Notes under the pieces: generated by a model
Told to the model about the DNA's origin: nothing
The model's database searches: none
The model's input: only the letters and a program-made list of their open reading frames with translations
From: a virus
Taxonomy: Duplodnaviria; Heunggongvirae; Uroviricota; Caudoviricetes
Reading direction: 5' to 3' (one strand)
Length of the DNA stretch: 64,000 nt
Virus record (IMG/VR): IMGVR_UViG_3300028886_000061
Location: 9,635-73,634 of that record
Made by a program: the position numbers and the translations under genes
Part shown: one piece after another, positions 9,444-59,729 of the stretch
Numbering within the stretch: position 1 is the first letter of the stretch
How the letters are laid out: every line of letters begins with the position of its first letter

Positions 9444-9527
9444 TGATTTTAGCGCGATAATTCGCTCCCTAATGAGAGATCTCGGGTGCCCCTGAATAAC
9501 TATACGGGTACAAAAAGATCTCTCATT
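9444..9527. repeat. structured intergenic repeat element, copy A (5' box gcgcgataattcgctccctaat + 12-bp palindromic stem)
   Basis: Shares 5' box with copies at 44209 and 59633; stem aatgagagatct/agatctctcatt; loop matches the other copies in inverted orientation. Confidence 0.7.
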
Positions 9528-9606
9528 AAAATTGAAATTTAGGAATCCGTCTAAAAAACATGAAAAATTGAGTATTTTATATAAACGAAATAAATTATAA
9601 AAAAAC

Positions 9607-10269
9607 ATGAACAATATGAAAACCGTATTTGAAGGTCAGGTTAACGACCAGAAGTTTACCAATCGTGATGAGATGAACGCCTATATTGCCCGCTGTATTG
9701 CCGAGGGTACCCCTATCTCCCATATGTCCTACTCTACAACACAGGTATGTGACAATCCTCAGAAACCTCAATGTCCTTGCCAGGGTAAAGCTGCTATCGA
9801 TGCCCGTCAGCAATCAGTAAGCTGGATAAAACATGTTCATCAGGTGAATCGCCTTGTTCCTCAGCCGTATACCAACATTATCGGTTACATCATTCCCTAT
9901 ATTGAGGAGAATCTCGAAATCGTCAATGATGACATGTCCGATGAGGTGGTCGCCGATCTGAAGGCTAAACTTGAGAAGCGTATGGCTTTTCTCGAGACTC
10001 ATATTTTCTCCTATATTCGTAGCGGTAAGTATGACAATTCGCAGGTGAACGAGTGGCTTAACCTCCTGATTGAGGGCCTCAGTAAGAAGCTTGACTGGGC
10101 TACCGGACGTCGCGATGAAATCAATACATTCATCAAGTCCATTCCTAATGATAAGTTCTTTGTGAATAGTGTGGATCTTCTGCACTTCACCACTTATGCT
10201 AACATCTATGATGAGGTAGCTGGTTTCTGCGCCGCGCTGATTGATGTCATCAATGATGTCGCCAAGTAA
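9607..10269 (+). CDS. hypothetical protein (220 aa), GC-rich
   Basis: ORF with ATG. Confidence 0.5.
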   Translation: MNNMKTVFEGQVNDQKFTNRDEMNAYIARCIAEGTPISHMSYSTTQVCDNPQKPQCPCQGKAAIDARQQSVSWIKHVHQVNRLVPQPYTNIIGYIIPYIEENLEIVNDDMSDEVVADLKAKLEKRMAFLETHIFSYIRSGKYDNSQVNEWLNLLIEGLSKKLDWATGRRDEINTFIKSIPNDKFFVNSVDLLHFTTYANIYDEVAGFCAALIDVINDVAK

Positions 10270-10322
10270 GAGTTAGTAAGACAGTTGCTTATATAAGCCT
10301 GCTGGTTAAATACCGGTAGGCT

Positions 10323-10338
10323 TTTTTTATATTTATTC
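10323..10338 (+). promoter_or_regulatory. promoter-like box tttttttatatttatt upstream of 10353
   Basis: Motif recurrence. Confidence 0.35.
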
Positions 10339-10352
10339 AAAATACAATAATT

Positions 10353-11213
10353 ATGAAAATAGGTGCAATTAGTGATACCCACGGTATTCTCAACTATATT
10401 GAAGTAGACCAACAATGCGATGTATTGGTTATAGCTGGTGACTTTTCTCCACTGAAAATTCAACATGCAGTTTCCCACGAGGAAAAAAACAACACGATGA
10501 AGTGGTGGATCAGGAATATCTTTATTGACTGGCTTACCCAACTACCAGCAAAACATATTATAATCACACCGGGTAATCACGATTTTGTCACCGAAATGGA
10601 TTGGTTCAAGGAATGGATAAACGGTGTACTATACGAGAAGGGTGTTCATGATCGAATCCATTACCTTTGTAACGAACAAATAACAATTGACGATATTACC
10701 TTCTGGGGATGTCCTTATAGTGATCTTCCTGGATGGGCTTGGTATTCCGGTGGGGATCCTAAACCATATACTCCTCCAGAAGGCACCGATGTAATGATTG
10801 TGCATGCAGCACCAAACTATGGCGGACTTGGTGAAACTATCAATCGTTGGGGACACCAAGCAAACTACGGTTCGGAATATCTGGTTAATGCATTGGCAAA
10901 ATGCCAAGATCTTCCCAAGTTGCTTGTTTGTGGCCACATTCACGGTGGACAACATAAACCACAACTATACACACGAACTATCAAGGTCCTCGAACAACCA
11001 GCACCAAACGTTAAGGGTCTTGTAACAAAGAAAAAGCAACAAGGGTGTGTGATGGTTAATGTATCCATCAAAGATGAAGGATATAATGAATCATATACAC
11101 CGGCTACGATCGACTATGATTGTACAGTGGATCATATATCAAACACCATCTCCGTGAAACATATTCGTCAAGACTTTCTGGAAGATATTAATACTTTTAT
11201 ATTAAACCGATAA
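10353..11213 (+). CDS. calcineurin-like metallophosphoesterase
   Basis: Motifs DTHG, GDF, GNHD, GHIHG in canonical order. Confidence 0.65.
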   Translation: MKIGAISDTHGILNYIEVDQQCDVLVIAGDFSPLKIQHAVSHEEKNNTMKWWIRNIFIDWLTQLPAKHIIITPGNHDFVTEMDWFKEWINGVLYEKGVHDRIHYLCNEQITIDDITFWGCPYSDLPGWAWYSGGDPKPYTPPEGTDVMIVHAAPNYGGLGETINRWGHQANYGSEYLVNALAKCQDLPKLLVCGHIHGGQHKPQLYTRTIKVLEQPAPNVKGLVTKKKQQGCVMVNVSIKDEGYNESYTPATIDYDCTVDHISNTISVKHIRQDFLEDINTFILNR

Positions 11214-11267
11214 TTTCTGTTAATAATTTGTGGGTGTACTTTATATATACTTGTAATAATATTTAAT

Positions 11268-12245
11268 ATGGAAACTAACAAGCAATGGAGACCAGCTCCT
11301 AAACATAACCCATTGGCTCCATACAATCGAGCCAAACTCAAGGACGCTCGGTGGCATACACCGGAGGAGGCTGAGGCTATCAGCAAGGTCTACAATAAAT
11401 GGGCTCGTAAGCGCTGGAATAACACCAGATATGAATATTATATGGAACCCGAATATCAGCTCGAGGTCAAATTGCTTAATAAGTATGTGGGTAAGCCATT
11501 CACGACGTTTATGGAGGCTTGGTTGAAACGAACCCAAGTGCTTCGCGATAAGGGTGTTCCCTTGGAGTTGAGAGCTATTGCAACCGGTGGGCGTGATAGG
11601 TACTACTACAGGTTCTATGTGGATGAGAATGGCATAGTCCAACTTAATTCTAAATACTACCCTGAACATCCCAAGATGCTCAAACTGGCACCTAATGGTA
11701 AGACTATTTATGTACGGCTCAACCAGAAATTGATAGAGGCTTTTCCGCACATTTCCATAATACTTCAGAATAATCTGAGTATGATGAGTCGGAAGAAATT
11801 TGCGGGGTTTTGCAATGGTACCAGTATAGAGCTATCAAAATTCAAATCAATCAAAGATACACTGTGGTGGGATTGGAAATCCAGTCTGATGAAGTATTTC
11901 CATCGTAATGGAATAGAATACAATAAGGAATTTCGTAAAATATATGGAATACCTGAATCCGGTCACTACTACTATCCTAATATCATAAGGGATCTGGATG
12001 AACTCTGTGAGTTCGATGATCGCACCGAATACCTCTATGTCGAACGTGGATCCAAAGAGTACTATCGGTATTTCGCGGAGAAAGAGAAACAGGAATCCAA
12101 GAAGATGCGGGAGCTGCGTCAAAGAAGTAGAGAGAATACCCGGTGGGATGAGGATATCCTGAAAGACAATGAAAAACAATCGAAAATAAAATCCCAGGAA
12201 CGTTGGGAGAAAACAAAGAACAATTATTTCTTAATACCTGAATAA
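11268..12245 (+). CDS. hypothetical basic protein (325 aa)
   Basis: ORF; K/R/E-rich C-terminus. Confidence 0.45.
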   Translation: METNKQWRPAPKHNPLAPYNRAKLKDARWHTPEEAEAISKVYNKWARKRWNNTRYEYYMEPEYQLEVKLLNKYVGKPFTTFMEAWLKRTQVLRDKGVPLELRAIATGGRDRYYYRFYVDENGIVQLNSKYYPEHPKMLKLAPNGKTIYVRLNQKLIEAFPHISIILQNNLSMMSRKKFAGFCNGTSIELSKFKSIKDTLWWDWKSSLMKYFHRNGIEYNKEFRKIYGIPESGHYYYPNIIRDLDELCEFDDRTEYLYVERGSKEYYRYFAEKEKQESKKMRELRQRSRENTRWDEDILKDNEKQSKIKSQERWEKTKNNYFLIPE

Positions 12246-12247
12246 CT

Positions 12248-14117
12248 ATGAACGATCTTAAAATATTTGCAAAAACAGTTGAAAGTAGCGTATATGGACA
12301 GATCCAGCGCATGATGTCCCTGGATGCTTTCCGTAATGCTAAAATCCGCATTATGCCGGATACTCACGCCGGTATGGGTTGTGTGATTGGATTCACAGCA
12401 GCCCTGGGTGAGAAGGTAGTGCCTAACCTTGTCGGCGTAGATATCGGATGCTTTACAAAAGATACCAAGGTAAAACTCGCCGATGGACGTGATTTGAATT
12501 TTGAAGAGCTTATTAGCGAATATAATGAAGGAAAAATAAATTATTGTTATTCGTTTGATAATGAGGGACAAATCGTTATTTCAAGAATTGATGTTCCACG
12601 AAAAATCAAAACTGTGGATAAAATAGTTGAGATTTTACTTGATAATAATGAGATAATCCATTGCACAACAGATCATATATTTTATGATATTAATAGAAAC
12701 GAAATAAAAGCCGAAAATTTAAAACAAGGCACTTCGTTATATCCATTATATGTAGATATTGCAAAAAAAATCACGATGGAGAAATTCAAACCAAAAACAA
12801 CAATAATGGCAAAATAAGAAAACATCTTGAAAAATACACAGTCATATACCAACCAACATATCATAAATGGACTTATGCCCACGTATTGGCAGATGAATAT
12901 AATACGAGAATACTTGGAAGTAACCCAACTGGATCATATGTACGTCACCACAAAGATTTTAATTATCTGAACAACAATCCGGATAATATCCAAAGAATGA
13001 CGTATAAAGAACATTGGAATTTACATTCCAATATGGTTAAGGTCACTAATGAAATGGGTATTACTGGGTTCAAGGCAGTTGCTAAAAAACATCCGCAAAT
13101 ATATAGTGAGGCTGGTAAAAAAAGAGCAGAATCTACTTGGCGTGGGAAAAATGCAGCGAATAATTTAAAAAACATGAGTGAATTGACACAAAAACGAAAT
13201 GAATCTGGTGAATTAAATTCTCCAGCCCAACGAGAAGCTGCAAGGAAAAGTCAACTTGCTCATAATACAACCAAATTCGATACACAGAATAAAGATCCTC
13301 AATTTAAACTTATACAACAAATCGGTAAACTTAAAAAAATCCTCATATTATGTGGTAATGATTTTTCGCAGAAGTCATATGAAATAGCTCGTAAAAAAGT
13401 CTATAATGGATATACGTGGGAGAAAGCAAATGAGATATCAATAAAATCAAAAATGACATTTGAGGAGTTGATTGGATATAAAAATCATAAAGTTATTTCG
13501 GTAAGGATTATTGATGAAACTACTGATGTATATTGTCTTACTAATTTTGAATATGGTAACTTTGCTTTGAGTTCTGGTGTATTTGTTCATAATTGTGGCA
13601 TGTACGTCGTAAACTTGGGTCCTATTGACATCGACCTATCGGGGTTGGATAAGTTCATTCACGAGAACATCCCTTCTGGTAGCGATGTTAACGAGAAGCA
13701 GGGTACCCGTGTGGAGTTCCCAGAACTAAATGATATGAAGATGTATAAGCATCTCCGTAACATTCCTCACCTGCAGTCCTCCATTGGGTCATTGGGTGGC
13801 GGTAATCATTTCATCGAAGTAGACATTGCCGAGAATGGTGACAAGTATTTGGTGATACACACCGGTTCCCGTAACCTGGGTCAGCAGGTATGTAAGTACT
13901 ACCAATTATACGATATATGGCTACTCTCAAAATTATCAACGACAAAATCAACGAACGCGACTGGCTCGCCGCTCGCACCGAACTCGGTACCAGTATTTCC
14001 GCTTTCGCTTGGAAGGAAGCATTTCTTTTCAATTCGTCCAACGACACCACCCTCGAGAAGTCCGTCAAGGCCATAGAGTGGCTCATCAATCACGGCTATA
14101 TTTCCATCGAAAATTAA
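12248..14117 (+). CDS. rtcB: RtcB-family RNA ligase, interrupted by an HNH intein and by two frame disruptions; C-terminal catalytic third not found
   Basis: MPDTHAGMG and GVDIG|C..HN|CGM intein junction exactly at the conserved DIGCGM site; GGGNHFIE and HTGSRNLG motifs; homology resumes in another frame after about 13900 (RDWLAA..AFAWKEAFLF). Confidence 0.6.
12449..13593 (+). mobile_element. intein with HNH homing-endonuclease domain inserted in rtcB
   Basis: Starts with Cys after DIG, block-B TTDH, HNH-like YVRHHKD..NNNPDN..EHWNLH, ends FVHN followed by C-extein CGMYVV; length 1145 nt (not multiple of 3) because of A8 run. Confidence 0.65.
12763..12770 (+). other. A8 homopolymer at which the intein reading frame shifts (+1 nt needed to restore frame)
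   Basis: Frame 2 ORF ends shortly downstream; frame 1 continues with HNH motifs. Confidence 0.5.
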
Positions 14118-23988: not shown

Positions 23989-24027
23989 TAACATGATCCC
24001 TGTAGGAAAATTTTATCAATAACAGAA

Positions 24028-24064
24028 AGGCTCGGTATTAAAAAACATACCGAGTCTTTTTATT
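24028..24064 (+). terminator. rho-independent terminator
   Basis: ctcggtat/ataccgag 8-bp stem followed by T-run. Confidence 0.7.
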
Positions 24065-24086
24065 TTATATAAAAATACAACAAGTT

Positions 24087-34352: not shown

Positions 34353-35024
34353 ATGACAGCAAATATTTCACATCAAATTCAGGAACTTGCAAAATGTGGA
34401 AATCAGGAAATCCTGATGTACGAAGCAGCCGCTAAACATGATATAAAATCGTTTAGTAAGGTCGAAGATGAATATTCATTCGAGTTTAAGACAACCGACG
34501 CGCTGGTGCTCGACCCCTGGAACGAGGTCGAAGATGAATATTCATTCGAGTTTAAGACAACATACTCGTTGGAATCACCTCACAGATACGTTTTTAAACG
34601 TAGATTAAAAACCTTAAATTTCCAGGAATCATTAATACTCATCACTGCAGATTTTCTCGATAAGGAACTCGAGTTATATGAAACAAGAAAAAATGAGTTG
34701 CATCACCATCTTGTATTCATGTACGATGATTGTATGCTCGTATTCAATATGAGGGATATTAGAGCGTGGATGATGAGAGAAGGTCCTACCGCAAAACAAG
34801 CGCGGGTCAGTAATAAAAAATGCCAGGGTGGATCGTTTACACGATGTACAGAAGATGTATATTATATACCAGCAAGCGTTCCACGTTCATGTGAAAACTA
34901 TATATCGAATGAAAGCTTCAGGGCATCCATTTATAATAGATGGACATATCAATCTGATTCTTCTGATGCTAAACCGACCAAGACACAGACACCACAAGGT
35001 GCACCTATATCACCCTATTTTTAG
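34353..35024 (+). CDS. hypothetical protein (223 aa) containing an in-frame 22-codon duplication
   Basis: ORF; 37-nt perfect direct repeat at 34457-34493 and 34523-34559. Confidence 0.45.
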   Translation: MTANISHQIQELAKCGNQEILMYEAAAKHDIKSFSKVEDEYSFEFKTTDALVLDPWNEVEDEYSFEFKTTYSLESPHRYVFKRRLKTLNFQESLILITADFLDKELELYETRKNELHHHLVFMYDDCMLVFNMRDIRAWMMREGPTAKQARVSNKKCQGGSFTRCTEDVYYIPASVPRSCENYISNESFRASIYNRWTYQSDSSDAKPTKTQTPQGAPISPYF

Positions 35025-35044
35025 CGGTTTTTTCGCCGTATAAC

Positions 35045-35114
35045 AAAAGATCTCATCTGACCCGTATAGTTACAACAGGGAAAATGAGATCGCTCATTAA
35101 AAAGGAGATTTTGA
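35045..35114. repeat. structured intergenic repeat element, copy B (hairpin gatctcat...atgagatc, loop gtatagttacaaca)
   Basis: Stem, loop core and 3' tail ctcattaaaaaggagatttt shared with copies A, C, D. Confidence 0.6.
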
Positions 35115-43446: not shown

Positions 43447-44211
43447 ATGAGAATTTTTAACACTCCGGTGAGAGTCATCAATAACGATACTCTCGAGACG
43501 TTAGGTACATATGAACCTACCCAGTTGATAATTCGGGAACCCGGTGAAACCGTCTGGGCTGTAACACTTAAACACCGTATTTATATTCTCCTCACTGTCG
43601 CACTGATGCTGATTGGATTTTTCCTCATTATCGGCGTTCAAGGTGGTGAGGTTCACAAGTTGAAACAGGAGATTGCTCACTACGAGGAACTTACCGGTAT
43701 GAACCTTCCATACATCTCCGTAGAGGCACTGGCCGGTAAGTATGCCACATACAAGGGCAAAGTACCCAGCAACAAGGACACCATCTTCAAGTTCATTTGC
43801 GAATCTGGTGCGTGGTATCCGGAAGTAATTATGGCTCAGTTCCAGCTGGAATCCAAGTTAATGACATCCGATGTTGGAAAGAATGCAATCAATGGATTTG
43901 GTATGAAGAAATGTGGTGAAGGTCCACGATCCCGACCCAACCTACAGATCCGAGGAATGGACTACCACGGATACGGAATGTATATGAACTGGTATCACTC
44001 AGTACTGGATAGAATCCTGTGGGATTTGTGGGTATTCTCCGATAAACCGGCAACCAGGGAAGCTTATCTCAAAGGTCTGATAGATAAACGATATGCAGAG
44101 GATCCGGATTATATCTCCAAGATCAGTCAAATCGCCAATCAATGGGCTGAAAAAACATCCAACTATATCGATCCGGATCATCCGAAGGATACAGTGAAGA
44201 GTAAACCGTGA
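43447..44211 (+). CDS. endolysin, FlgJ-type N-acetylglucosaminidase domain with N-terminal TM/signal-anchor
   Basis: IMAQFQLESKLMTS...NGFGMK matches glucosaminidase AQAxLESGWG..NNLFGIK; hydrophobic helix residues about 35-55; ORF open from 43330. Confidence 0.55.
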   Translation: MRIFNTPVRVINNDTLETLGTYEPTQLIIREPGETVWAVTLKHRIYILLTVALMLIGFFLIIGVQGGEVHKLKQEIAHYEELTGMNLPYISVEALAGKYATYKGKVPSNKDTIFKFICESGAWYPEVIMAQFQLESKLMTSDVGKNAINGFGMKKCGEGPRSRPNLQIRGMDYHGYGMYMNWYHSVLDRILWDLWVFSDKPATREAYLKGLIDKRYAEDPDYISKISQIANQWAEKTSNYIDPDHPKDTVKSKP

Positions 44212-44305
44212 TTTTTGCGCGATAATTCGCTCCCTAATAAAAGATCGCACCGTCCCTATGTAGTTATACAGGGGACGGTGCGATCGTTGTTTATAGAGGA
44301 GATTT
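44209..44305. repeat. structured intergenic repeat element, copy C, between convergent stop codons
   Basis: 5' box tttttgcgcgataattcgctccctaataaaa; perfect 14-bp stem gatcgcaccgtccc/gggacggtgcgatc; loop tatgtagttatacag. Confidence 0.75.
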
Positions 44306-45043
44306 TTAAGCTGCGTCTTCGACTGTCCAACCGGACGGTATCTTACTTGTACTACTTCTCCAAGTTGATTCTGATATAGATGGGTTTTTAACGAATGTAC
44401 CTGTTTGGGCAACATAGGCAAGCAAATTAGTAGTACATCTTGATGCTGATATATCAGCTGCCAGACATTTAATTGCATAACACATATTAGCCAGTGTTGT
44501 AGCGGGTAATTCAGGTGCAGAGGTCAATGACTTGCAACCATAGAACATATTGGTATAACAACTATTGACCAGTGTTCTTGCCGGTAAAATAAGGTTACCT
44601 GCACTTTTAAGTTTGGTTTTACCAAAGAAATATGAACTAAAATTATAACCAGTTGCGTCCTTTTCAAACGATGTCTTAACCAGTGAGTTGATATTACCGC
44701 CGATATCATAGTCGGAATCCGATTTTTCGGTCCAGTTTGGTTTCAATGGTGTATCCTGGTCACTTGCCACACGGAAATATGTCTTTCCTGTTGGTAGGTC
44801 GCCAGCGACCGTATCCGTCCAATTCTCACCATCGGTACTCATCTGCAAGCCTGATGTATCTGCCAGAGTTACAGGACCTCGAACGTCGATGTAGAATGGT
44901 ATTGGATAGCTTGGAGTCGGAGGCACTCCCGGCTTCAACGATATACCACTCTCTCCACGAATAGCGGATAATGTATTATACTCCAGTGTTGGGAGTATGG
45001 ATGCTGCCTGTTGGGCATTCTCAAACATTCTTATATGTTTCAT
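44306..45043 (-). CDS. putative receptor-binding / fibre protein with BspA-type leucine-rich repeats
   Basis: Repeats LPARTLVNSCYTNMF / LPATTLANMCY similar to those in the 59746 gene; track start 45082 is TTG, ATG at 45043. Confidence 0.45.
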   Translation of the reverse strand: MKHIRMFENAQQAASILPTLEYNTLSAIRGESGISLKPGVPPTPSYPIPFYIDVRGPVTLADTSGLQMSTDGENWTDTVAGDLPTGKTYFRVASDQDTPLKPNWTEKSDSDYDIGGNINSLVKTSFEKDATGYNFSSYFFGKTKLKSAGNLILPARTLVNSCYTNMFYGCKSLTSAPELPATTLANMCYAIKCLAADISASRCTTNLLAYVAQTGTFVKNPSISESTWRSSTSKIPSGWTVEDAA

Positions 45044-45679: not shown

Positions 45680-45689
45680 TTCAGTTTAT

Positions 45690-48608: not shown

Positions 48609-48611
48609 ACC

Positions 48612-50300: not shown

Positions 50301-50321
50301 ATTGTTATATATAATTTTTCT

Positions 50322-50684
50322 TTAGTATTCTACGGCACCTTGGGTGACCTTGTATGTTTTATGATATGAACTTCCGTTTGGATCGTGCAATTCGATGGTG
50401 AGTAATAAAATATCATTCATTGAGCCGACAAGGAAATCCACATGTACTGTCACTTCCCAATTGAATAACTCGACATTATCAACAATGTAGTCGCGTACAT
50501 CATTTTCGATAGTTGTATTACCAATATTTGGGTTATATAGATATACGTCAAAACGCGTGCCAAAATTATAGTCACCCAGTACCTCACCATTACGGGTATC
50601 CAACAGAATCTCTATCTGTTGCATGATAAGGTCTGCTTCCTGATCGTATATAATATCACCTTCTATGATACTGAAATCAACCAT
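50322..50684 (-). CDS. baseplate wedge protein, gp25/GPW family
   Basis: IEILLDTRNGEVLGDYNFGTRFDVYLYNP matches gp25-like signature. Confidence 0.6.
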   Translation of the reverse strand: MVDFSIIEGDIIYDQEADLIMQQIEILLDTRNGEVLGDYNFGTRFDVYLYNPNIGNTTIENDVRDYIVDNVELFNWEVTVHVDFLVGSMNDILLLTIELHDPNGSSYHKTYKVTQGAVEY

Positions 50685-52519
50685 TATCTTTCATATGTAT
50701 ATTTACCGAGGGTTACCATTTCAAACTTATCGTTAAGAATATAATATGTTCCTCCATTCACTTCGCCGGGAAGAAGATTACCATCAATGGTAAAGATCAC
50801 ATCCCTGGAAGTACGGCCTGTTTCTATGAAGTCAACGCCCTCAATGCGAATATAGAATATATCAACCTTTGACTTATATTTGTTAAGATTAATACCGATA
50901 TTTTCCGATACCTCCGGATGGACGACTATATTGGATACACTCTCACTACGGTAGAACACCGGGTGAATGATATTAGCCTTGTAATCCTCCGGTCTGGTTA
51001 CCTGAATAATTTTCTTTTGTATTTTATTGACCACACTTACATTATACTCAAACATATTTACATAATCTATTTTTATACGTTTCCCATCCGATACATTTGT
51101 CGGTACCAAAAAACGATAATTATCCTGTATCAAAGGAATCTCATTGGTGATGATGGATATAATAGGGAAGTTCGTTTCCCTAATTTCTTCTATATTATTA
51201 AGATTTGTATCATATACCTCGACACTACCAACCATTATCAATCCCTCACCATACCAATTCCAATCGTGTCCAATCTCGGAACGATCAAAGAAGTACGAGG
51301 AACCACTTTTCAACAGTTTTGTATGTATTGCAAAGATATCCTCTTTATCCCTTATAACCAATTCAACTATAATTCTGTTCTCACGTGGAACCAACCTATT
51401 CTCATCGATCATACCGGTTTGTGGGTCTGGTTCAATCACCTCACCATTTTCATCCACATACTCACCCATCTCATTTACTTTCCAAAGGCCATAAGTTTCA
51501 CCTAAATAAAGATCGATATCATCTTGATACACTTCATTGAATAATATGGATATTCGGGCATCCCCATCGAACTCGAGTTTTGCATGCAGGTAATCTGATG
51601 GTTTGGCCTCGAATGGTATGCTTACGGTTCCACAGTCGTACTCGCTCATTCGATGATACTCACCATTCAATCGAATGGTATAACGGAAAGCCTCATTAAA
51701 CTCAAGTTCATCCGTCTGTTTCTCTTTATATATACCGTAATCATTATAGTAGCGTTTATAGTATGAGTATTTATTGGTATTCTCATTTTTCACCCTATAC
51801 ACATACACATCCTTGTAGTTTCTATCCAGATAATGGTACATATCCATATTAGGGCTTGCATACTCATTATACGAAGGTACATGCATTACCGGTTCCAACT
51901 GGATATGTAATACAGCACCTGTGTTATTCGTATAAGGTAACTCACCACACACATTGACCCTAAACGGTTTCCAAATATCATCATATGTGATTGCAACTGG
52001 ATCAAGAATAGCCATCTCAACACACATATTGTAATCCATATTCTTATACTTTACCTTCTCCGGTGTGGCAAGTGCTGATCGTGGATCAAACATATAACTA
52101 CCCAATATCACCTTGGTACCGGCTATATATATGTAAGCAGTCATTATATAACGTATACCGGAAAGGGATAATTCATTATCATCACTAAAGGTGTTATCAA
52201 AGAACGACTCAATAGAATAACGGGGGAAGTATACCACAATTTGACGTTGATCTATACGTTGTGGTATATAATAGTTAGTGTGATATCTTTCATCAATACT
52301 CCAGGTGTTAAGATTACATACCATATTATATATCTCGGACCCGTTGAAATTATCAATCACTTTATTGTTACGGAAGAACTGAACACAATCCCTATGTTCC
52401 GTATTTGTTGCATAATGATAGAATCCGTTGGTGATTTGGGTAAATATATCCCTAACCTCCACCATATAACGGAGTTGCTTATCATCATGCACTATATTAA
52501 GTTGAGCTCTTTGTTTCAT
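50684..52519 (-). CDS. virion structural protein (about 610 aa), putative baseplate hub/spike region
   Basis: Upstream of gp25-like gene; track start 52564 is TTG, first ATG at 52519. Confidence 0.35.
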   Translation of the reverse strand: MKQRAQLNIVHDDKQLRYMVEVRDIFTQITNGFYHYATNTEHRDCVQFFRNNKVIDNFNGSEIYNMVCNLNTWSIDERYHTNYYIPQRIDQRQIVVYFPRYSIESFFDNTFSDDNELSLSGIRYIMTAYIYIAGTKVILGSYMFDPRSALATPEKVKYKNMDYNMCVEMAILDPVAITYDDIWKPFRVNVCGELPYTNNTGAVLHIQLEPVMHVPSYNEYASPNMDMYHYLDRNYKDVYVYRVKNENTNKYSYYKRYYNDYGIYKEKQTDELEFNEAFRYTIRLNGEYHRMSEYDCGTVSIPFEAKPSDYLHAKLEFDGDARISILFNEVYQDDIDLYLGETYGLWKVNEMGEYVDENGEVIEPDPQTGMIDENRLVPRENRIIVELVIRDKEDIFAIHTKLLKSGSSYFFDRSEIGHDWNWYGEGLIMVGSVEVYDTNLNNIEEIRETNFPIISIITNEIPLIQDNYRFLVPTNVSDGKRIKIDYVNMFEYNVSVVNKIQKKIIQVTRPEDYKANIIHPVFYRSESVSNIVVHPEVSENIGINLNKYKSKVDIFYIRIEGVDFIETGRTSRDVIFTIDGNLLPGEVNGGTYYILNDKFEMVTLGKYTYER

Positions 52520-52686
52520 ATAATTGACGAATTTATCGTTATAAATATAATAAATATACGACAAACACTTTCTTATTAATCACTGATAATATTATTAGTC
52601 ATTCAAAACACCTTGTGAATTTTCATATATTATACCAAGAGGCATCAAACAGACGTCCTTTGTACCTCAAAATTAAATATTGAAAT

Positions 52687-53367
52687 ATGATATTAGATTA
52701 CGAATATTCGCGAGACAAAAAACAGTTTAGTATCTCGTTTATCCGTGCGGATGGTAATAAGGAGGTTATGCACTTCGATAATATTCAAAAGTTCCTCACA
52801 TATTACTACACTCCGGGAGGACGATTCAACACCTGGAATGGAGCCAAGGCAGATACTAAATATACCTACAATCCAAGCAAGTTTGACCTTAAAGAGTTTA
52901 TATATAATCTTGCACCAGAGATCCAGGAGAAATTGGATGGTAAGGCATTCCCAAAATTATATACATTCGATATTGAGACCCGGTTGAAGTCGGGTCCCCA
53001 CGGTGAGGTCGGACAAGGTGACTTTACCGAAGCAACAGTCGCTGATGAACCTATCCATACTATCTCGTTGGTATCCCCGAATATGAATAGTGTTGTTATG
53101 GGTGATAAACCTTTAAATGACGCACAAATTCAATGGGTTAGAGACCAGTTCTATGCATACCTTGATAGTATTCCCTTCTATAGAACCCTTAACCTTCCAA
53201 GACCTGAGTTCAAATATGTGTATTTTGATAGTGAGGAAAGGATGTTACGTTTCTTCCTCGAGAATGTGGTAGCCAAGGTGCCAATCCTTGCCGGTTGGAA
53301 CTCCATCGGATACGACTGGTGTTATATCACATCCCGTATTAAGAACTTCTATTCAAACATCGGGTAG
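52687..53367 (+). CDS. DNA polymerase family B (T4 gp43-like), N-terminal 3'-5' exonuclease segment (Exo I, Exo II)
   Basis: Exo I FDIET, Exo II GWNSIGYDWCYITSRIKNF aligning to RB69 GWNVESFAIPYVYNRIKNIF; ends GGG-TAG. Confidence 0.75.
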   Translation: MILDYEYSRDKKQFSISFIRADGNKEVMHFDNIQKFLTYYYTPGGRFNTWNGAKADTKYTYNPSKFDLKEFIYNLAPEIQEKLDGKAFPKLYTFDIETRLKSGPHGEVGQGDFTEATVADEPIHTISLVSPNMNSVVMGDKPLNDAQIQWVRDQFYAYLDSIPFYRTLNLPRPEFKYVYFDSEERMLRFFLENVVAKVPILAGWNSIGYDWCYITSRIKNFYSNIG

Positions 53368-53423
53368 CCGATGGTTCTGCAACTCATACAGTATCATATA
53401 AGAACTTCACCAATATGAAAGGT
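53358..53423 (+). other. candidate recoding/bypass site in polB: take-off GGG-UAG in hairpin, 56-nt gap, re-entry at GGU
   Basis: Hairpin catcgg-gtag-ccgatg (53358-53373) encloses GGG (53362-64) and UAG (53365-67); joining at ggt 53421-23 gives ungapped alignment to RB69 gp43. Confidence 0.4.
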
Positions 53424-55652
53424 GAAACCATCAAGATGCCACATCCTACCCATACACTTATCTTGGATATGATGGATGTAATCGAAAATGAGGATACTCA
53501 AGTACTTCCTACCAAGGAGTCAATGAACCTTGATTACATCTCACACGAGGCTTTGGGTGCCAATAAAGTGGAATACGAAGGCAACCTCGAGGAATTGTAC
53601 ATCAAAGACTTTGCTAAATATGTCTTTTACAACTTGATCGATAGTATTTTGGTTCAGTTAAACGACAAGAAGTTCAAGTCGATGGACCATATATATATGT
53701 ATTCACTTTATGCAAAGGAACGCATCGGTCAGTGTTTTAGTAAGATTGCCTTGACTGAATCCCTTATTCTTAAACACTTCCGTACAACCAACACCAAGAT
53801 TGTATGGGAACAGAAAGAACAAGTGGAACGCGGTCGATTGGTTGGTGCATATGTAAAGATGCCGGTTGCTGGTCTTTGGGAGTTGGTTTGTTGTAATGAC
53901 TTTGCCGGACTGTATCCAACCACCGGTATTGTAACCAACATCTCATTCGATAACTTTGTTGGTACCTTCTACGATGAGGAGAAACTGGCTCCATACAGAC
54001 AGGATCCGGCACGTTACATTGTGGTGTGTGGTAATGTGTATCGTAATAAGGGTTCACTGGCTAAACCAGAACTCGGAGAGTTCGTTGCCCAGTACCTTGA
54101 TGAGGAAGCATTGGCACCATACCGTAAGGATAAGAACTACTTTGTATCCATCAACGGACACGTATATAAAAACGATAAAGACTATACCTTGAAACTGGTA
54201 TGGAATAACCTTCGTTTGGAACGTAAAAAGAGCAAGTATCTGTCCAAGAAACTGGATGCTCATATTGCAATGGATATCAACCATATACTCCGTTGTTATA
54301 CAGACCACCCAGAACTGGGTATCAAAGAACTTAATCACGATATCCTCAATAAATATGATGAGAGTGAGATCGAACACCTTAAAGCAATGGGATACGATTT
54401 CAAGAGTGGTGAGGATCTTGTGGGTATGAGCGTGGATGATCTGAAGGTACTCCAACGCATTATCAAAACAGAGATTACATATCTTGCCAACCTTGAACAG
54501 GCCATCAAACTTATGATGAATAGTATATATGGAGGAACCTCGCACCAGGCATTCTATTGGTTCAATATTGCACTGGCCAATGATGTTACCGGTGAGGGAC
54601 GTAATCTCACCCATCATATGGAACGTCACCTTAATGAGTTCTGGAGAGATGCTTGGCAAACCAATCCGGATCTTAAGAAGATTCAGGATGAACTGGGTAT
54701 CAAACTTAAACCCAAGGAGGTTATTGACCAAATCCTTAAAGACTCACACGATAACTCATTGGTAACGTGCGTGTATGGTGATACTGACTCCTTATATCTA
54801 TCATATAAGGACCTCATTGATACCATTGAGGGATCCGAGAAGTTTGACCTCCACGACAAACTGAAGATCATTCTTAAGATCAACACGGAGTTCCTTGACA
54901 AACACAACAAGGAACACCTCCGGGATTACTTCCTTTCGCGTAATGTTCGTCCGAATACTGCGGATCTGGAAGACTTCGAATTGGAGACGGTCAATAAACG
55001 AGGTGTATGGCTCCACGAAACCAAGAAACGTTACGGACAAATCCTGCTATGGAAAGAGGGTAAGTTCTTTGATATGGATGACCTCCCGATTAAGGTTAAG
55101 GGCCTTGAGATTATCAAATCGTCTTATCCAACCCTGTCCCGTAAGCAACTCAAACAAATGCTTCGCTTTATGCTGGAGTATGATGGTAAGTATCTTACCC
55201 AGGAGTTGAACCTATTGTCACAAAAGTTCCTCAAAGAATTCGAAACTGCAGATATTGACCTTGTCAGTGGTAACCTGAAGGTGAACGGATATGCGCAGAA
55301 GATTATCCAGGATACTAACCCCAATGGATTTGAAACCGTTAAGGGTGCATCGTTTAATATCAAAGCACTTGCAATGTATAACTGGTTGAATAACGTACAT
55401 CATTTTGGTTCGGAACCAATATATGGAGGTAAACTTAAATACTACACAATAAAGGGTTCCAGTGAAAAGAATGGTGATATATACTTCGCATATGAAGGTA
55501 CTAAATATCCAAAATGGGCAGACCAATATGCTCCATCGGATCGCAAACGAATGTATAAGAAATTCGTTCTTGACCCCATCAACCGTATTCTTGGTAGTGC
55601 TGGTATGCCTCTCCTGCGTGTCGATGGAAGTATTCAGATTGCATTGTTCTAA
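53415..55652 (+). CDS. DNA polymerase family B (T4 gp43-like), polymerase segment
   Basis: LDYISHEALG..YNLIDSILV aligns to RB69 LDYISEFELN..YNIIDVYRV; motif B KLMMNSIYG; motif C YGDTDS; homology begins at 53421. Confidence 0.75.
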   Translation: MKGETIKMPHPTHTLILDMMDVIENEDTQVLPTKESMNLDYISHEALGANKVEYEGNLEELYIKDFAKYVFYNLIDSILVQLNDKKFKSMDHIYMYSLYAKERIGQCFSKIALTESLILKHFRTTNTKIVWEQKEQVERGRLVGAYVKMPVAGLWELVCCNDFAGLYPTTGIVTNISFDNFVGTFYDEEKLAPYRQDPARYIVVCGNVYRNKGSLAKPELGEFVAQYLDEEALAPYRKDKNYFVSINGHVYKNDKDYTLKLVWNNLRLERKKSKYLSKKLDAHIAMDINHILRCYTDHPELGIKELNHDILNKYDESEIEHLKAMGYDFKSGEDLVGMSVDDLKVLQRIIKTEITYLANLEQAIKLMMNSIYGGTSHQAFYWFNIALANDVTGEGRNLTHHMERHLNEFWRDAWQTNPDLKKIQDELGIKLKPKEVIDQILKDSHDNSLVTCVYGDTDSLYLSYKDLIDTIEGSEKFDLHDKLKIILKINTEFLDKHNKEHLRDYFLSRNVRPNTADLEDFELETVNKRGVWLHETKKRYGQILLWKEGKFFDMDDLPIKVKGLEIIKSSYPTLSRKQLKQMLRFMLEYDGKYLTQELNLLSQKFLKEFETADIDLVSGNLKVNGYAQKIIQDTNPNGFETVKGASFNIKALAMYNWLNNVHHFGSEPIYGGKLKYYTIKGSSEKNGDIYFAYEGTKYPKWADQYAPSDRKRMYKKFVLDPINRILGSAGMPLLRVDGSIQIALF

Positions 55653-55721
55653 TAATTTATGGGGCTCGCTTTTAGAACCCCTTTTAAATTTTATATATTA
55701 TTTTGAAATAAATACATATCA

Positions 55722-56720
55722 ATGAAGGAATATTCATACACAATCCATTCTTCCTCCGGTAATGAAACTGCCTTTGTACTTAAGGGTAATCACATCACCA
55801 TTATATATCACGATATCCTTAATTCGATCGCTCATTTCGTAATGGAACATTATGATAAACCCGAGCATGATAATGCATTGATACTTGTCAATACACTCCC
55901 GTCCGATATTATGCTGCAGGAGTTGAAGCTTAACGAATGTTCGATTAAGATATTCTATAATCTTGAACAGTATGTTATGGGTAAGGTTAATGAGGGTACA
56001 AAGAGTTACTTCGAAAATGTATTGTTCGAATATATGAGAGCCCATAATTTCGATGAGATATGGGATTTCCTGATGGAAGACTATGAGTTTATGCCAAATG
56101 ATCTCATTAAAAAATTCAGATTTGTACCTCCACGATATTCTCACTACTTTGATGCAGTTAGAGAAACCATTAAGGCTCGCCGCGAAGCTATTAATCCACG
56201 ATATGATCTATTCTTTTCGGGTCTCCACGATACAGATACCCGTCTGTGGACCTTGGCTAATATCCAATCCAACAAATATACTACCCAGGGAATCAAATTT
56301 ATTACATCATCTGGTTATAACAATGTGAATAACTACGACTTACAATCTATGTGTAAATTTGCACTTGACTACCCTCACTATTCCCTTACTGATCAGACCC
56401 AAACCACAACCAGGGTGTACGATATGGTGATGTGTGGTAACTGTGTTATTGGTCATTATAATCCAAAATTTATCAATTACTTTGAAGGTATCATCATTCC
56501 GGTGCAAGGCGACAATCAAACCGTGTTTGCCAATAACGTAAAAGATGTATGTCATAGTGATAAACCATATTATAATGGACATGAGATATACAAGGAATAT
56601 ACCTATACGGATGAAGCATATGATGCATTCCGTAAGAAGTTCATTCAAAAATATTTTGATTTAACAGGTATCAATGCATCTGCATATGCAGGACTACCTT
56701 TATTTAGTGCCAAAAATTAA
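55722..56720 (+). CDS. putative GT-B fold glycosyltransferase
   Basis: C-terminal RVYDMVMCGNCVIG matches GT-B hxxEAMACGxPVI helix and T4 beta-glucosyltransferase RVWETMASDAVMLI. Confidence 0.35.
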   Translation: MKEYSYTIHSSSGNETAFVLKGNHITIIYHDILNSIAHFVMEHYDKPEHDNALILVNTLPSDIMLQELKLNECSIKIFYNLEQYVMGKVNEGTKSYFENVLFEYMRAHNFDEIWDFLMEDYEFMPNDLIKKFRFVPPRYSHYFDAVRETIKARREAINPRYDLFFSGLHDTDTRLWTLANIQSNKYTTQGIKFITSSGYNNVNNYDLQSMCKFALDYPHYSLTDQTQTTTRVYDMVMCGNCVIGHYNPKFINYFEGIIIPVQGDNQTVFANNVKDVCHSDKPYYNGHEIYKEYTYTDEAYDAFRKKFIQKYFDLTGINASAYAGLPLFSAKN

Positions 56721-56749
56721 TATATTTAATAAATAAACATAATAAGATT

Positions 56750-57334
56750 ATGCAACTTACAGGTAAACAAATCGTTGAAGAAGGTCTTGTTACTAACTAT
56801 GTTCCCGAAGCAGTCCAGCAGCAAGGTATGGATGTACGCCTGATGAAAGTACGCCGGTTTGGCCATCGAGCAGAATCATGTCGTGATATTGATGGTCCTA
56901 AGTGGGAAAAGAACTTTCATCTTGACGAAATCGGGTTCATTCCAGCACAGGGTAAAACCAAACTTCCCAAGTCAGAGGAAATCATCCCCCAGGAATATAC
57001 TCGCGATGGATATACTTTCACCGGCTGGATTCTCGATCCCGGTTACTATGAGGTGATCTTCGATGAAGGTTGCAAGATGCCAAATAATCGGGTTATGGTT
57101 CTCATCTCCCGTTCCAGTGCAGTTCGTTGTGGCTCTTTCATTGAGTGTGGCCAATTCGATGCCGGTTTCAACACAGACCACATGGGTTGCTTCTTTAAGG
57201 TTGAAGAGCGTATCGCTATCGAAGAACACGCCCGTATTGCACAGCTCCGCTTCACAACTACAGAAGAGGTTGAAAGTGACAATATGTATAACGGCCAGTG
57301 GCAGAACGATAAACAAAGAAAAACACAGGCATAA
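56750..57334 (+). CDS. dCTP deaminase / dUTPase-superfamily protein
   Basis: MDVRLMKVRRF, LISRSSAVRCGS, FDAGFNTDHMGCFF align with E. coli Dcd VDVRLGNKFRTF, LDGRSSLARLGL, IDPGWSGCIVLEF. Confidence 0.55.
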   Translation: MQLTGKQIVEEGLVTNYVPEAVQQQGMDVRLMKVRRFGHRAESCRDIDGPKWEKNFHLDEIGFIPAQGKTKLPKSEEIIPQEYTRDGYTFTGWILDPGYYEVIFDEGCKMPNNRVMVLISRSSAVRCGSFIECGQFDAGFNTDHMGCFFKVEERIAIEEHARIAQLRFTTTEEVESDNMYNGQWQNDKQRKTQA

Positions 57335-58104
57335 TGCTCAAATACGCAAATACACAAGTGGTCTTCCAGGAATTTCCAGGGGAGACCACTTTCGCTATAA
57401 ACTTAACAAATTGCCCACATCACTGTGATGGATGTCACTCCCCTCATTTATGGAAGGATGAAGGTACACATCTTACAGTCGAGGAACTTTCAAGATTGAT
57501 TGCTCCCATAGAAAAGAACATCACCTGTATTGGTTTTATGGGTGGAGATGGTGATTTCAACGAACTCAACGATCTGGTCGGTGTGGCCCGGTGTATGTAT
57601 CCAACTCTCAAAATTGGTTGGTATAGTGGTAATGATGCTTGGTCGGATGAAATGATGCATCTATTTGACTACGTCAAATTCGGTTCCTATAAAAAGGAAC
57701 TCGGTGGATTGGATAGTCCAACCACAAACCAGATGATGTTTAAGCATATCTACAATGGTATAGGTCCCCAGGATAGTACTTTTGATATGTGGCTTAATAT
57801 CACAAAGTGTTTTTGGAGGGATACTTCCGAACCCGATAAAAAATACATATTGAGTATTACATATCATAAATTGGCTGTGATTCGAAAAATAATGCTTGAA
57901 TCATGTGTGTTCTCTATGATTGGTCTTACAACAGATGGATATGAAACCAAGGATGAAATGCCATCCGAGGAAGATTGGGTTAATGGTACTATTATGCTAC
58001 TCAATGGTCAAATTCCGCCAAAAGAATGTTATATACGAAAATATCGTAGAAAAATTGGAGAAAAAGAATGGGAGGAGTGTGAAGGAGAAGTTAAGATTCT
58101 GTAG
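57334..58104 (+). CDS. nrdG: anaerobic RNR activating enzyme NrdG (radical SAM) with C-terminal extension
   Basis: NCPHHCDGCHSP cluster matching GCxHxCxGCxN; IGFMGGDG SAM-binding motif. Confidence 0.7.
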   Translation: MLKYANTQVVFQEFPGETTFAINLTNCPHHCDGCHSPHLWKDEGTHLTVEELSRLIAPIEKNITCIGFMGGDGDFNELNDLVGVARCMYPTLKIGWYSGNDAWSDEMMHLFDYVKFGSYKKELGGLDSPTTNQMMFKHIYNGIGPQDSTFDMWLNITKCFWRDTSEPDKKYILSITYHKLAVIRKIMLESCVFSMIGLTTDGYETKDEMPSEEDWVNGTIMLLNGQIPPKECYIRKYRRKIGEKEWEECEGEVKIL

Positions 58105-58120
58105 TGTTCCTTTATATATT
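58103..58120 (+). promoter_or_regulatory. promoter-like box gtgttcctttatatatt upstream of 58147
   Basis: See 42655. Confidence 0.4.
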
Positions 58121-58146
58121 ATCAAGAACATTAAAAAGAAAGAACA

Positions 58147-58407
58147 ATGGAAAACCGATTTGAAATAACTGAAAGAGACCTTCCGAAAGAAAAGCGGAAC
58201 GAGCGAGTAACCATCGAGATGAGCAGGTACGACCTTGAAATCATCCTCCGCTCTTTGGACGAGTCGTACATAAGTGAGTTGTACAAGACCAAGTGGGAAC
58301 AGCAAAATCCAGGCGAATATCCTCCGCAATATTACTACAGCGGGAACAACATCACCAGAAAAATCAAAAGTACTATCAAGTATCTTAAAAGCCAAATCAA
58401 CAAATAA
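58147..58407 (+). CDS. hypothetical protein (86 aa)
   Basis: ORF; promoter-like motif at 58103-58120. Confidence 0.4.
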   Translation: MENRFEITERDLPKEKRNERVTIEMSRYDLEIILRSLDESYISELYKTKWEQQNPGEYPPQYYYSGNNITRKIKSTIKYLKSQINK

Positions 58408-58411
58408 CAAT

Positions 58412-58606
58412 ATGGAAGCAATCATTTCAATCGCACTTATCGCACTGGTAGTTATCCTGGGTAGCATCTGTTTCTGGCAGAGATTGATTATTAAGGTCAA
58501 CCGCAAGGACGCGGACACCATACAGAACAAGGTTTGGAAACTTCAGGACAAGTACTCCATTCCTGACGAGGAAATCCGCGCCTGCTTCTATCCCGAGCAT
58601 AATTAA
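58412..58606 (+). CDS. small single-pass membrane protein (64 aa)
   Basis: ATG at 58412; hydrophobic N-terminal helix IISIALIALVVILGSICF. Confidence 0.35.
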   Translation: MEAIISIALIALVVILGSICFWQRLIIKVNRKDADTIQNKVWKLQDKYSIPDEEIRACFYPEHN

Positions 58607-58617
58607 ATTAACGACAT

Positions 58618-58965
58618 ATGAAATACAAACTCACCATCAAACTGATCGGATGTGGACGTAATCTGCTCGATGAAATCAGAAACGACCTTGTTAAGGCATC
58701 GCAGGAGACAAACTACACAAAAGAATTTCCGGATGGATCCGTCATAACGACAGCAACAGACATTGTTATATCAGGTACAACAGTCACAATATGTTCAACG
58801 TTTACAGGTCACGGTCAGCAGTATGAGGATAATATGGAAAAGATGAATCGTGAGATACTCACCGGTGAGTTTCAGGCAGATTTCAAACGGCAATATTCGA
58901 ATTGCAAACCGGAGAATGGTTGCACAGATGTTAAAGCAAATGTCACTCAAATACCAACAGCATAA
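58618..58965 (+). CDS. hypothetical protein (115 aa)
   Basis: ORF. Confidence 0.4.
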   Translation: MKYKLTIKLIGCGRNLLDEIRNDLVKASQETNYTKEFPDGSVITTATDIVISGTTVTICSTFTGHGQQYEDNMEKMNREILTGEFQADFKRQYSNCKPENGCTDVKANVTQIPTA

Positions 58966-59123
58966 TGAACACAAAAAAGATTTTCACAAACATCGCAAAC
59001 AGTCTCAGCTTCTATCTTGAGGCAATTCACTTTATGACTCCCATCAGGGTACTTACCGGTGAGCAACTCCGGAGCACCAACGATCACGGATCAAAGAAAC
59101 GTAATAGATAAAATTCAATCAAT

Positions 59124-59627
59124 ATGACAAGACAAGAGTATCTTAATCAAAAAACAGAAGATGTGGCCCCTGTAAGTGGTACCATCAATAATCTCATCGA
59201 GTACCTCATTATTCGTAAACAATGCGAAGAGTTTGAGAGTAGGAATATCACAGAATTCCTCAATGAAGAAGACTACAAGGCGTTCGATGTCAACTTCAAT
59301 AAATGTCTCGAAAGTCTGCAATATAAGGATCCGGACGATGAGGATGATAAGACTGACATTGAGGAAGTCCGCGAGATGATGGAGCTCACCGGTTGGAAAT
59401 GGGCATACTCCGGTGAAGGTGGTAAATCAGCCGTTCCGAGTGAGAAACAGATCATCGACTGTATCAAGTACTGCTACGAAGAATCACTCAAATCCGGTCA
59501 TGCTCGTGGAGGCTGTGGTACCGGTGGAGTTAACGTGGAAACCGATATTCTGGATCACTCAGTACACATCACATTTGATCATTTCGATATCTCCTACAAT
59601 GATGGAGAAGATGATGGAGAGGAATAA
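59124..59627 (+). CDS. hypothetical acidic protein (167 aa)
   Basis: ORF. Confidence 0.4.
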   Translation: MTRQEYLNQKTEDVAPVSGTINNLIEYLIIRKQCEEFESRNITEFLNEEDYKAFDVNFNKCLESLQYKDPDDEDDKTDIEEVREMMELTGWKWAYSGEGGKSAVPSEKQIIDCIKYCYEESLKSGHARGGCGTGGVNVETDILDHSVHITFDHFDISYNDGEDDGEE

Positions 59628-59632
59628 TACCT

Positions 59633-59729
59633 GATTTTTGCGCGATAAATCGCTCCCTAATAAAAGATCTCATCGTCCCTTAGTAGTTATACAGGGGACG
59701 GTGAGATCGTTGTTTATTGAGGAGATTTT
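59633..59729. repeat. structured intergenic repeat element, copy D, between convergent stop codons
   Basis: Near-identical to copy C; stem gatctcatcgtccc/gggacggtgagatc with G-U wobble; loop ttagtagttatacag. Confidence 0.75.

Follow-up and report, generated by a model that had tools for sequence, protein, structure and literature searches.

A 64,000-nucleotide stretch of DNA from a tailed phage (positions 9,635 to 73,634 of IMG/VR virus record IMGVR_UViG_3300028886_000061; "the window" below) carries four intergenic copies, A to D, of a structured element of ~95 nt. The copies are built around a long, covarying hairpin and belong to a family that is limited to one phage clade, lies mostly between convergent genes, has T-tracts that differ with the orientation of the flanking genes and evolves in concert within each genome, and homology between related phages breaks off at these elements. 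We consider it fairly probable that they form a clade-specific family of concertedly evolving, bidirectional intrinsic terminator cassettes that mark junctions of module exchange.

According to this explanation, the long GC-clamped hairpin, bordered by an A-run and, at its opposite end, by a T-run, would fold in transcripts of either strand and halt RNA polymerase, giving factor-independent termination in both directions and leaving a protective hairpin at the 3' end. Its main use would be at the meeting points of oppositely oriented gene modules; the co-directional copies A and B, with a weak T-tract on the transcribed strand, would probably act as leaky terminators or as 3'-end or processing hairpins. 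Being similar and palindromic, the copies would recombine with each other, which would homogenize them within a genome and may also symmetrize the loop and flip its orientation, and they would thereby serve as junctions for module exchange between related phages, as has been proposed for the PeSL cassettes of T4-type phages.

Structure, covariation and placement of the element

Read along the + strand, the element follows the order of upstream-gene stop codon, T-run (GATTTTT), small GC hairpin of 3-5 bp with an A/T loop, CCCTAAT, A-run and long hairpin with GATC at its stem base. In the interior of the long hairpin a CCC/GGG clamp encloses an AT-rich core of 12-15 nt, and 3' of it come a T-rich tail and a second (G)GAGATTTT box. 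CCTAAT stands in window copies A, C and D in place of TATAAC, the form of most relatives. An imperfect inverted repeat of 27 nt results in C and D from the pairing of CTCC in the 5' box with GGAG in the 3' tail, and the 15-nt loop is itself near-palindromic (ATA-(AC/GT)-TAT, closed by CCC/GGG) and can fold on to a 4-nt loop in these two copies. The 22-nt 5' box, GCGCGATAAWTCGCTCCCTAAT, occurs three times in the window, against none expected from 100 shuffles. A preliminary description of this DNA had assigned the box to three copies only; these three stand, and B also has a diverged 5' box consisting of a small hairpin (35024-39) followed by TATAAC.

We made a covariance model from 12 copies of the element and scanned the window with filters off. 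The scan returned exactly the four copies, at the places previously described, and no fifth; the limits needed correction, as A reaches ~9545 and B begins ~35018 (Table 1), and four is the count for the window only, a 152-kb relative having at least seven. The best additional match of the model, at 24007-24085, is an ordinary terminator unrelated to the element.

The structure is well supported by folding and by covariation. On both strands, copies A, C and D surpass shuffled sequences in folding by 5-8 standard deviations (z = -5.0, -7.8 and -6.3, respectively), and folding of copy B is weaker (z = -1.2 on the + strand and -3.5 on the - strand); the hairpin stabilities of C are -34.4 (+) and -31.6 (-) kcal/mol and those of D are -30.5 (+) and -22.2 (-) kcal/mol. 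In an alignment of 12 sequences, 13 of the 18 pairs of the long stem have two-sided changes and 84.7% of cells are paired, a level of covariation reached by 0/500 shuffles and halved when the register is slid by one column. These results bear out the covarying hairpin of the preliminary description, and the stems of C and D differ in the way it stated: stem position 5, T-A in D and G-C in C, is a true compensatory change, and position 8, T.G in D and C-G in C, is a wobble that has become a Watson-Crick pair by a change on one side only. In loci from related phages (designated here by L numbers), the GATC stem base is swapped with compensation, for GGCC in L027 and for GTTC/GAAC in L044, indicating that pairing, and not the GATC sequence, is conserved. 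Since a perfect Watson-Crick stem is unchanged by reverse-complementing, flipping of the loop does not account for the double changes. G.U pairs are without bias between the strands (18 on the + fold and 26 on the - fold), hence neither strand is privileged. MAFFT loses the register of the small hairpin (56.7% paired), which was judged instead by folding each copy: it stands at a constant place in nearly every copy with differing arm sequences, such as GCGA/UCGC, CGCA/UGCG, CGCG/UGCG, CGGA/UCCG and CUCGA/UUGAG.

All copies are intergenic and nearly fill their spacers. Approximately 18 of the 25 copies with readable context sit between convergent open reading frames (ORFs), 0-60 nt from the stop codons, at sites that include junctions of metabolic with tail-fibre or baseplate modules. 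The genes of the window lie in blocks on alternating strands (+ from 82 to 44211, - from 44306 to 52564, + from 52687 to 59627 and - from 59746 to 63846). Copy C fills positions 44212-44305 exactly between a TGA (44209-44211) and a - strand stop codon (44306-44308), as had been described; copy D lies between the convergent stops at 59625-59627 and 59746-59748. The T content after the stem differs with context: C, D and all convergent relatives have 6-7 T per 10 nt on both strands, whereas co-directional A has 4/10 on both strands and co-directional B has 3/10 on the transcribed strand and 7/10 on the other. This pattern of strong convergent and weak co-directional T-tracts would be expected if termination were selected for where polymerases converge and if selection were relaxed at places where read-through can be tolerated.

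All four copies stand at the end of a short unit whose beginning is marked by a promoter-like motif, GTTAA-N-TATATATAA (8662, 34319, 43094 and 58090). In its fuller form, GTTAA(G/T)-N14-15-TTTATATATAA, the motif recurs 6-30 nt upstream of gene starts at ten intergenic sites, all on the + strand, and there is one more match within an ORF, at 52307. The motif probably represents a phage-specific promoter class, possibly a late one; it matches neither the sigma-70 consensus nor the Bacteroidota consensus TTTG/TAnnTTTG. The window also contains ordinary terminators, at 1555, 2888, 5738, 10295 and 24025, with loops of 4-6 nt and unrelated sequences, one of which (2888-2911) serves another convergent junction. 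The element thus forms a class of its own, and this phage has other terminators besides it. Two of the ordinary terminators, 2888-2911 and 24025-24065, are bidirectional, as seen from predictions on both strands or from A- and T-runs on either side.

Distribution, concerted evolution and homology breakpoints

Relatives' loci were taken around homologues of the family B DNA polymerase (PolB) in IMG/VR. We found ~25 further copies of the element, all in related uncultivated phage contigs. Homologous elements occupy the syntenic C and D sites of L002 (PolB 86% identical to that of the window), L003 (77%), and L004 and L005 (47%), which speaks against a recently mobile insertion; a small mobile site had been among the earlier suggestions. 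Copy A has an orthologue in L039, and the site orthologous to B is L031 12971-13064, which follows a 26%-identical homologue of the gene upstream of copy B. A search of metagenomes with the 22-nt box gave L036-L039 and one with the 3' box of L002 type gave L040-L044; the 152-kb contig with its seven or more copies has approximately one per 15-20 kb. The 16-mer TATAACAAAAGATCTC matched viral contigs 19 times, nine matches being real elements in three related contigs and the other ten being chance occurrences within ORFs of unrelated contigs.

Outside this clade the element was not found. No copy was detected in the more distant phages L006, L007, L028-L030 and L032-L035, blastn of two versions of the element against cultured phages gave no match, and two scans of 185,579 prokaryote species, one genome each, gave none either, which leads us to reject an origin in a host or prophage. 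Rfam at gathering thresholds reported nothing in the whole window; in E-value mode, copies A and C gave only noise resembling microRNA-precursor hairpins, at no more than 27 bits against thresholds of 49-116.

Within this clade, copies in one genome resemble each other more than they resemble their orthologues. Paralogues C and D are 93% identical, in contrast to 62% for C and L002C, 52% for C and L003C, and 55% for D and L002D; likewise, L002C and L002D are 71% identical and have genome-specific features in common, e.g. CCTTTTATATGCGA. That paralogues are closer than orthologues indicates concerted evolution, which explains much of the conservation seen within a genome. A direct repeat, GATTTT(T), is present at both outer ends of the element (GAAATTT in A) and also in L002D and L036-L038, and in copy C it holds the stop codons of both neighbouring genes. 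Because it is constant from site to site, it is not a target-site duplication.

The element also coincides with breaks in homology. L038 combines a left flank matching that of L037 (84%) with a right flank matching that of window site C (95%); L037 and L036 have their right-hand block in common (84%) and differ in their left flanks; and the window has yet another left flank, such that flank homology stops at the element in all four. Next to sites A and B, the closest relative has other genes in place of those of the window, or genes that have diverged to 26% identity. The gene 5' of copy B (34353-35024) is fast-evolving and contains a 66-nt tandem duplication at 34459-34572 (48 nt at 92% identity). 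Together, the convergent stop codons, the T-tracts on both strands and the breakpoints at the element fit the earlier proposal of a bidirectional terminator that is possibly a recombination site as well.

The loop core and competing explanations

The loop of copy A, ctgaataactatac, is the reverse complement of the type found in B, C and D (gtatagtta or gtagttata), in agreement with the preliminary description. The core has an 'AC' orientation in A, L027, L002D and L004C and a 'GT' orientation in B, C, D, L002C and L031, and thus occurs both ways round relative to the 5' box and to transcription, making a single sequence-specific RNA loop signal unlikely. The same follows from A and B, which are both co-directional yet have complementary loops. 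Between L004C and L005C, the reverse-complement match is 16/18 (24/28 over the centre) versus 12/18 (20/28) for the direct match. As the core is near-palindromic and a change from AC to GT amounts to two transitions, inversion of the loop is likely, albeit unproven.

Where the outer stem is altered or has decayed, the AT-rich core (CCC-N-ATAACTAT-N-GGG) is still kept, as is the small 5' GC hairpin. In the orthologue of copy A in L039 there are six changes in the stem and none in the 14-nt loop, a difference that is not significant alone at 87% identity, and loop similarity between sub-clades is only modestly above chance (53/2000 shuffles). The core 8-mer occurs outside the elements at chance frequency only and is not a dispersed binding site. 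As had been argued, the hairpin is more conserved in sequence than a generic terminator requires, but concerted evolution weakens this conservation as proof of a second function. On a neutral account, gene conversion between palindromic copies, in either orientation, may symmetrize and flip the centre; on a functional account, a dimeric protein may recognize the duplex or a cruciform. A more specific proposal, which we regard as speculative and rather unlikely, is that a clade-specific phage protein recognizes the core and the small 5' hairpin and acts on the extruded hairpin or cruciform, in which case the cassettes would be dedicated sites of module exchange or transcription insulation and not passive terminators in which recombination is incidental. 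Such a protein may be a structure- and sequence-specific nuclease, a recombinase or a termination factor.

Several observations weigh against a family of bidirectional terminators as the full explanation. In L031 the outer stem has decayed and the CCC-aatatagttatga-GGG core is retained, and in L027 the sequence of the stem has been replaced and gaataactata is retained; retention of the core despite these changes points to a constraint on the sequence itself, of which a terminator has no need. For an intrinsic terminator the nominal loop is long, at 14-15 nt compared with the 4-6 nt of the ordinary terminators in the window. Copies A and B are conserved in L039 and L031 although their U-tract on the transcribed strand is poor, so termination alone does not explain their retention. 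The small 5' hairpin has no role in the terminator model. Finally, L038 is a 2-kb metagenome contig in which chimeric assembly at a repeat is possible, although the longest exact stretch common to copies is ~26 nt, making such a chimera less likely but not impossible.

One alternative is that the element works as duplex DNA, as a palindrome bound by a dimeric phage or host protein with the RNA hairpin being incidental. The bound site could be a transcription roadblock, a site for type II topoisomerase or cruciform binding that relieves supercoiling between converging units, or a site of recombination or replication initiation. The symmetry runs into the loop, where the core ATA-(AC/GT)-TAT is framed by CCC/GGG and the conserved arms TATAACAAAAGATCTCC / GGAGATCTTTGTTTATAT; the core can lie either way round (A versus B, L027 versus L031), which is tolerable at the DNA level and not for recognition of an RNA loop; it outlasts the outer stem in L031 and L027; and convergent junctions are preferred. 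We nevertheless hold this explanation to be unlikely, since the arms of A, B, C and D differ yet stay complementary, a signature of base pairing and not of a fixed half-site, and since GATC is replaceable by GGCC or GTTC/GAAC, no candidate binding protein was identified and the similarity of loops between clades exceeds chance only modestly for AT-rich loops. The element could instead be a signal for RNA processing or stability, a long hairpin cut by a postulated RNase III-like enzyme or blocking 3' exonucleases and so setting the ends and differential stability of mRNAs, as the conserved RNase III sites of T7 do. The A-run/T-run bidirectional layout and the preference for convergent sites, where there is nothing downstream to separate, would be unexplained by such a signal, leading us to judge it improbable despite the length of the imperfect helices (14-27 bp), the conservation of A and B in co-directional runs with no U-tract on the transcribed strand and the fact that every copy follows a gene or short unit with its own promoter-like motif. 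RNA processing overlaps the terminator model and does not exclude it.

Two further explanations carry far less weight. Several similar copies per genome, palindromic arms, a GATTTT(T) direct repeat at both ends of most window-clade copies and an identical 22-nt box in four metagenome contigs with unrelated flanks are features one might associate with a miniature non-autonomous mobile element (MITE- or PATE-like) that inserts at GATTTT(T) targets. However, the C and D sites are occupied in all five phages down to 47% PolB identity with no empty orthologous site seen, the flanking repeat is the same everywhere whereas target-site duplications vary, the 185,579 prokaryote genomes contain 0 copies and no transposase was identified near any copy; mobility of this kind is very improbable. 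Least probable of all is a tiny RNA gene, in which the 5' box would be a promoter (GATTTT, 16-19 nt, TATAAC/TAATAA) and the hairpin with its T-tract would form a transcript of ~55 nt with a functional loop. The supposed spacer is a covarying GC hairpin, the TATAAC is the very motif replaced in window A, C and D, and the motif matches neither the recurrent promoter-like motif of the window nor a sigma-70 scan. The loop is conserved, as an RNA gene would require, but its two orientations would give RNAs with complementary, not identical, loops, and the remaining support is that the spacing of the T-rich box to TATAAC is fairly constant, with a box on one side only.

Genomic context and comparison with known systems

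The window has a G+C content of 39.6% and phage genes aboard, encoding an anaerobic ribonucleotide reductase, a baseplate wedge protein, PolB, a tRNA nucleotidyltransferase and a polynucleotide kinase. A megablast search of the region against 50,697 cultured phage records found no relative, and the window PolB is 25-27% identical to the polymerases of Flavobacterium phage MaF61 and T4-like coliphages; judged by its sequence, the phage is an uncultivated, distant T4-like one. Only 3 of 70 window genes have a Shine-Dalgarno (SD)-like motif, versus a background of 16%, and positions -20 to -10 are 50-67% A and less than 10% G. Scarcity of SD motifs together with A-rich, G-poor upstream regions is a pattern known for translation initiation in Bacteroidota, and we infer from it that the host is probably a member of that phylum. 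The same scarcity, together with the change of GGAG to GCGAG in L038, the C-site orthologue, contradicts the earlier assignment of the (a)ggagatttt sequence as an SD signal.

Other genes of the window have features of their own. The nrdD gene (20242-23988, +) encodes a 1248-aa NrdD in which a LAGLIDADG-bearing intein (approximately residues 288-636) separates the ATP-cone from the catalytic domain, and immediately 3' of the gene is a 603-aa HNH/homing-endonuclease-like gene (24087-25898, +) with an internal 79-nt duplication (24325-24403 / 24565-24643, 81% identity). PolB is contained in two + strand ORFs, one with the exonuclease domain (52687-53367) and one with the polymerase (53415-55652); in L006 and L007 the PolB match spans residues 2-432 only, suggesting a further split or insertion there. 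An ORF at 12886-14076 (+) gives a partial match to RtcB RNA ligase and a weak one to intein splicing; taken together, this ORF, the CCA-adding enzyme (27152-28666) and the polynucleotide kinase (35472-36143) suggest a set of genes for RNA repair. The 1366-aa product of the gene at 59746-63846 (-), which has internal repeats at 61861-63342 with a period of 216-219 nt and contains glycoside hydrolase family 2 and CHB_HEX_C/Fn3-associated domains, is probably a tail-associated depolymerase with tandem Ig-like domains.

Table 1. Positions of the element copies, their parts and associated motifs in the window (CM, covariance model)
Feature	Position	Strand	Context or sequence	Score or folding
Copy A, whole	9444..9545	+	co-directional genes 8717-9439 and 9607-10269 on either side	CM 70.1 bits, E ~6e-13
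A, small GC hairpin	9454..9465	+	GCGA-taat-TCGC; preceded by T-run 9444-9451	-5.2 kcal/mol vs shuffles -2.1 +/- 1.9
A, long hairpin	9471..9527	+	outer arms aatgagagatct / agatctctcatt; inner stem gtgccc / gggtac; tails T-poor, 4/10 on both strands	
A, loop	9492..9505	+	ctgaataactatac; core ATAACTAT, 'AC' orientation, reverse of B, C and D	
Copy B, whole	35018..35113	+	co-directional genes 34353-35024 and 35119-35475 on either side; upstream stop TAG 35022-35024 overlaps start of small hairpin	CM 76.3 bits
B, diverged 5' box	35024..35044	+	small hairpin GCGGU-uuuuuc-GCCGU, then TATAAC	
B, long hairpin	35049..35091	+	gatctcat...atgagatc; inner ccc/ggg; loop gtatagttacaaca at 35064-35077; tail T 3/10 on +, 7/10 on -	
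Copy C, whole	44209..44308	+	convergent stops TGA 44209-44211 (+ gene) and TAA complement 44306-44308 (- gene)	CM 90 bits
C, small hairpin	44219..44230	+	GCGA-taat-TCGC	folding
C, 14-bp stem	44243..44285	+	gatcgcaccgtccc / gggacggtgcgatc; loop 44257-44271; tails 6 T of 10 on both strands	
C, outer extension	44231-34 / 44298-301		ctcc pairs with ggag	
Copy D, whole	59633..59732	+	convergent genes 59124-59627 (+) and 59746-63846 (-) on either side	CM 84.9 bits
D, small hairpin	59642..59653	+	GCGA-taaa-TCGC	folding
D, 14-bp stem	59666..59708	+	gatctcatcgtccc / gggacggtgagatc; T.G wobble at position 8; loop 59680-59694; tails 7 and 6 T of 10	
Direct repeat, outer ends	9444-9450 / 9534-9541; 44210-44216 / 44301-44307; 59633-59639 / 59724-59729			
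Promoter-like motif sites	4330, 8662, 11219, 15394, 25915, 29547, 34319, 42636, 43094, 58090	+		

The element is neither a REP/BIME nor a MITE, a nut site or a member of any Rfam family. Its closest parallels are the PeSL and PmSL cassettes of T4-type phages (Arbiol et al. 2010, PMC2839356; Comeau et al. 2014, PMC4122927). In a PeSL, which is located between co-directional ORFs, the stem-loop comes first and then an early promoter of sigma-70-like type, an SD sequence and a start codon (PMC2839356, PMC4122927). Both are repeated, conserved intergenic stem-loop (terminator) cassettes of T4-like genomes, both are similar within a genome with a consensus that differs between phage groups, and both adjoin variable genes and breakpoints of exchange or insertion and deletion between close relatives (the parallel in PMC4122927). 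Unlike a PeSL, the element lies mostly between convergent stops, lacks a promoter and makes no use of SD, and its hairpin is much longer, with a near-palindromic conserved core and an extra small hairpin 5' of it. No promoter motif was found inside the element, and C and D are directly followed by the stop codon of a convergent gene; with no promoter, SD or start codon downstream, and mostly facing a convergent gene, it is by definition not a PeSL. The only composite, PeSL-like terminator-promoter case is L027, where a GTTAA-N17-TATAT motif overlaps the 3' arm: at 12930-12990 the arm, GGCCGTTAAATCGC, supplies the GTTAA of a GTTAA-N17-TATATTAT promoter-like motif before the next gene.

If our explanation is correct, the idea of a cassette that is both terminator and recombination junction, which comes from coliphage and vibriophage relatives of T4, would extend to a distant uncultivated branch with probable Bacteroidota hosts and to a different architecture that is terminator only, bidirectional and located at convergent module boundaries. 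The covariance model could be used as a marker for where transcription units and modules end in such phage genomes from metagenomes, and L027, L031 and L044, where the core is kept and the stem replaced, would be test cases for a second, sequence-specific signal in phage terminators. The importance of the element would rise if the core were a protein recognition site.

Bidirectional intrinsic terminators resemble the element in their GC-rich hairpin, their flanking A- and T-tracts, the hairpin plus U-run in both transcripts and their convergent placement; the U-tract is present on both strands in C, D and all convergent relatives and is lacking in A and on the transcribed strand of B. Ordinary terminators have no sequence in common, whereas the arms, loop core and flanks of the element are common across sites and phages. 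T7 RNase III hairpins also form a related intergenic set in one genome and define mRNA 3' ends. The T7 sites all serve one direction of transcription and have a characteristic internal loop, in contrast to the symmetric, bidirectional element. A lambda-type nut site (boxA plus boxB), which lies between a promoter and the terminators that are to be read through, does not fit because the elements follow the last gene of units and most face a convergent gene; CGCTCCCTAATAA has a boxA-like look. Nut/boxA, a CRISPR-repeat mimic (Racr) and an N4-type hairpin promoter were set aside on position, size or stem length. REP and BIME sequences are likewise repeated extragenic imperfect palindromes, often lie between convergent genes, evolve in concert and have proposed roles in termination, mRNA stabilization and supercoil management. 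REPs are chromosomal, high-copy sequences of 20-40 nt with a GTAG/CGTC tag and a link to RAYT transposases (PMC3733652), whereas the element is phage-only, ~95 nt long, present at about one copy per 15-20 kb and free of a terminal tag in the alignment. The element would act like a bidirectional intrinsic terminator, and it evolves like a PeSL.

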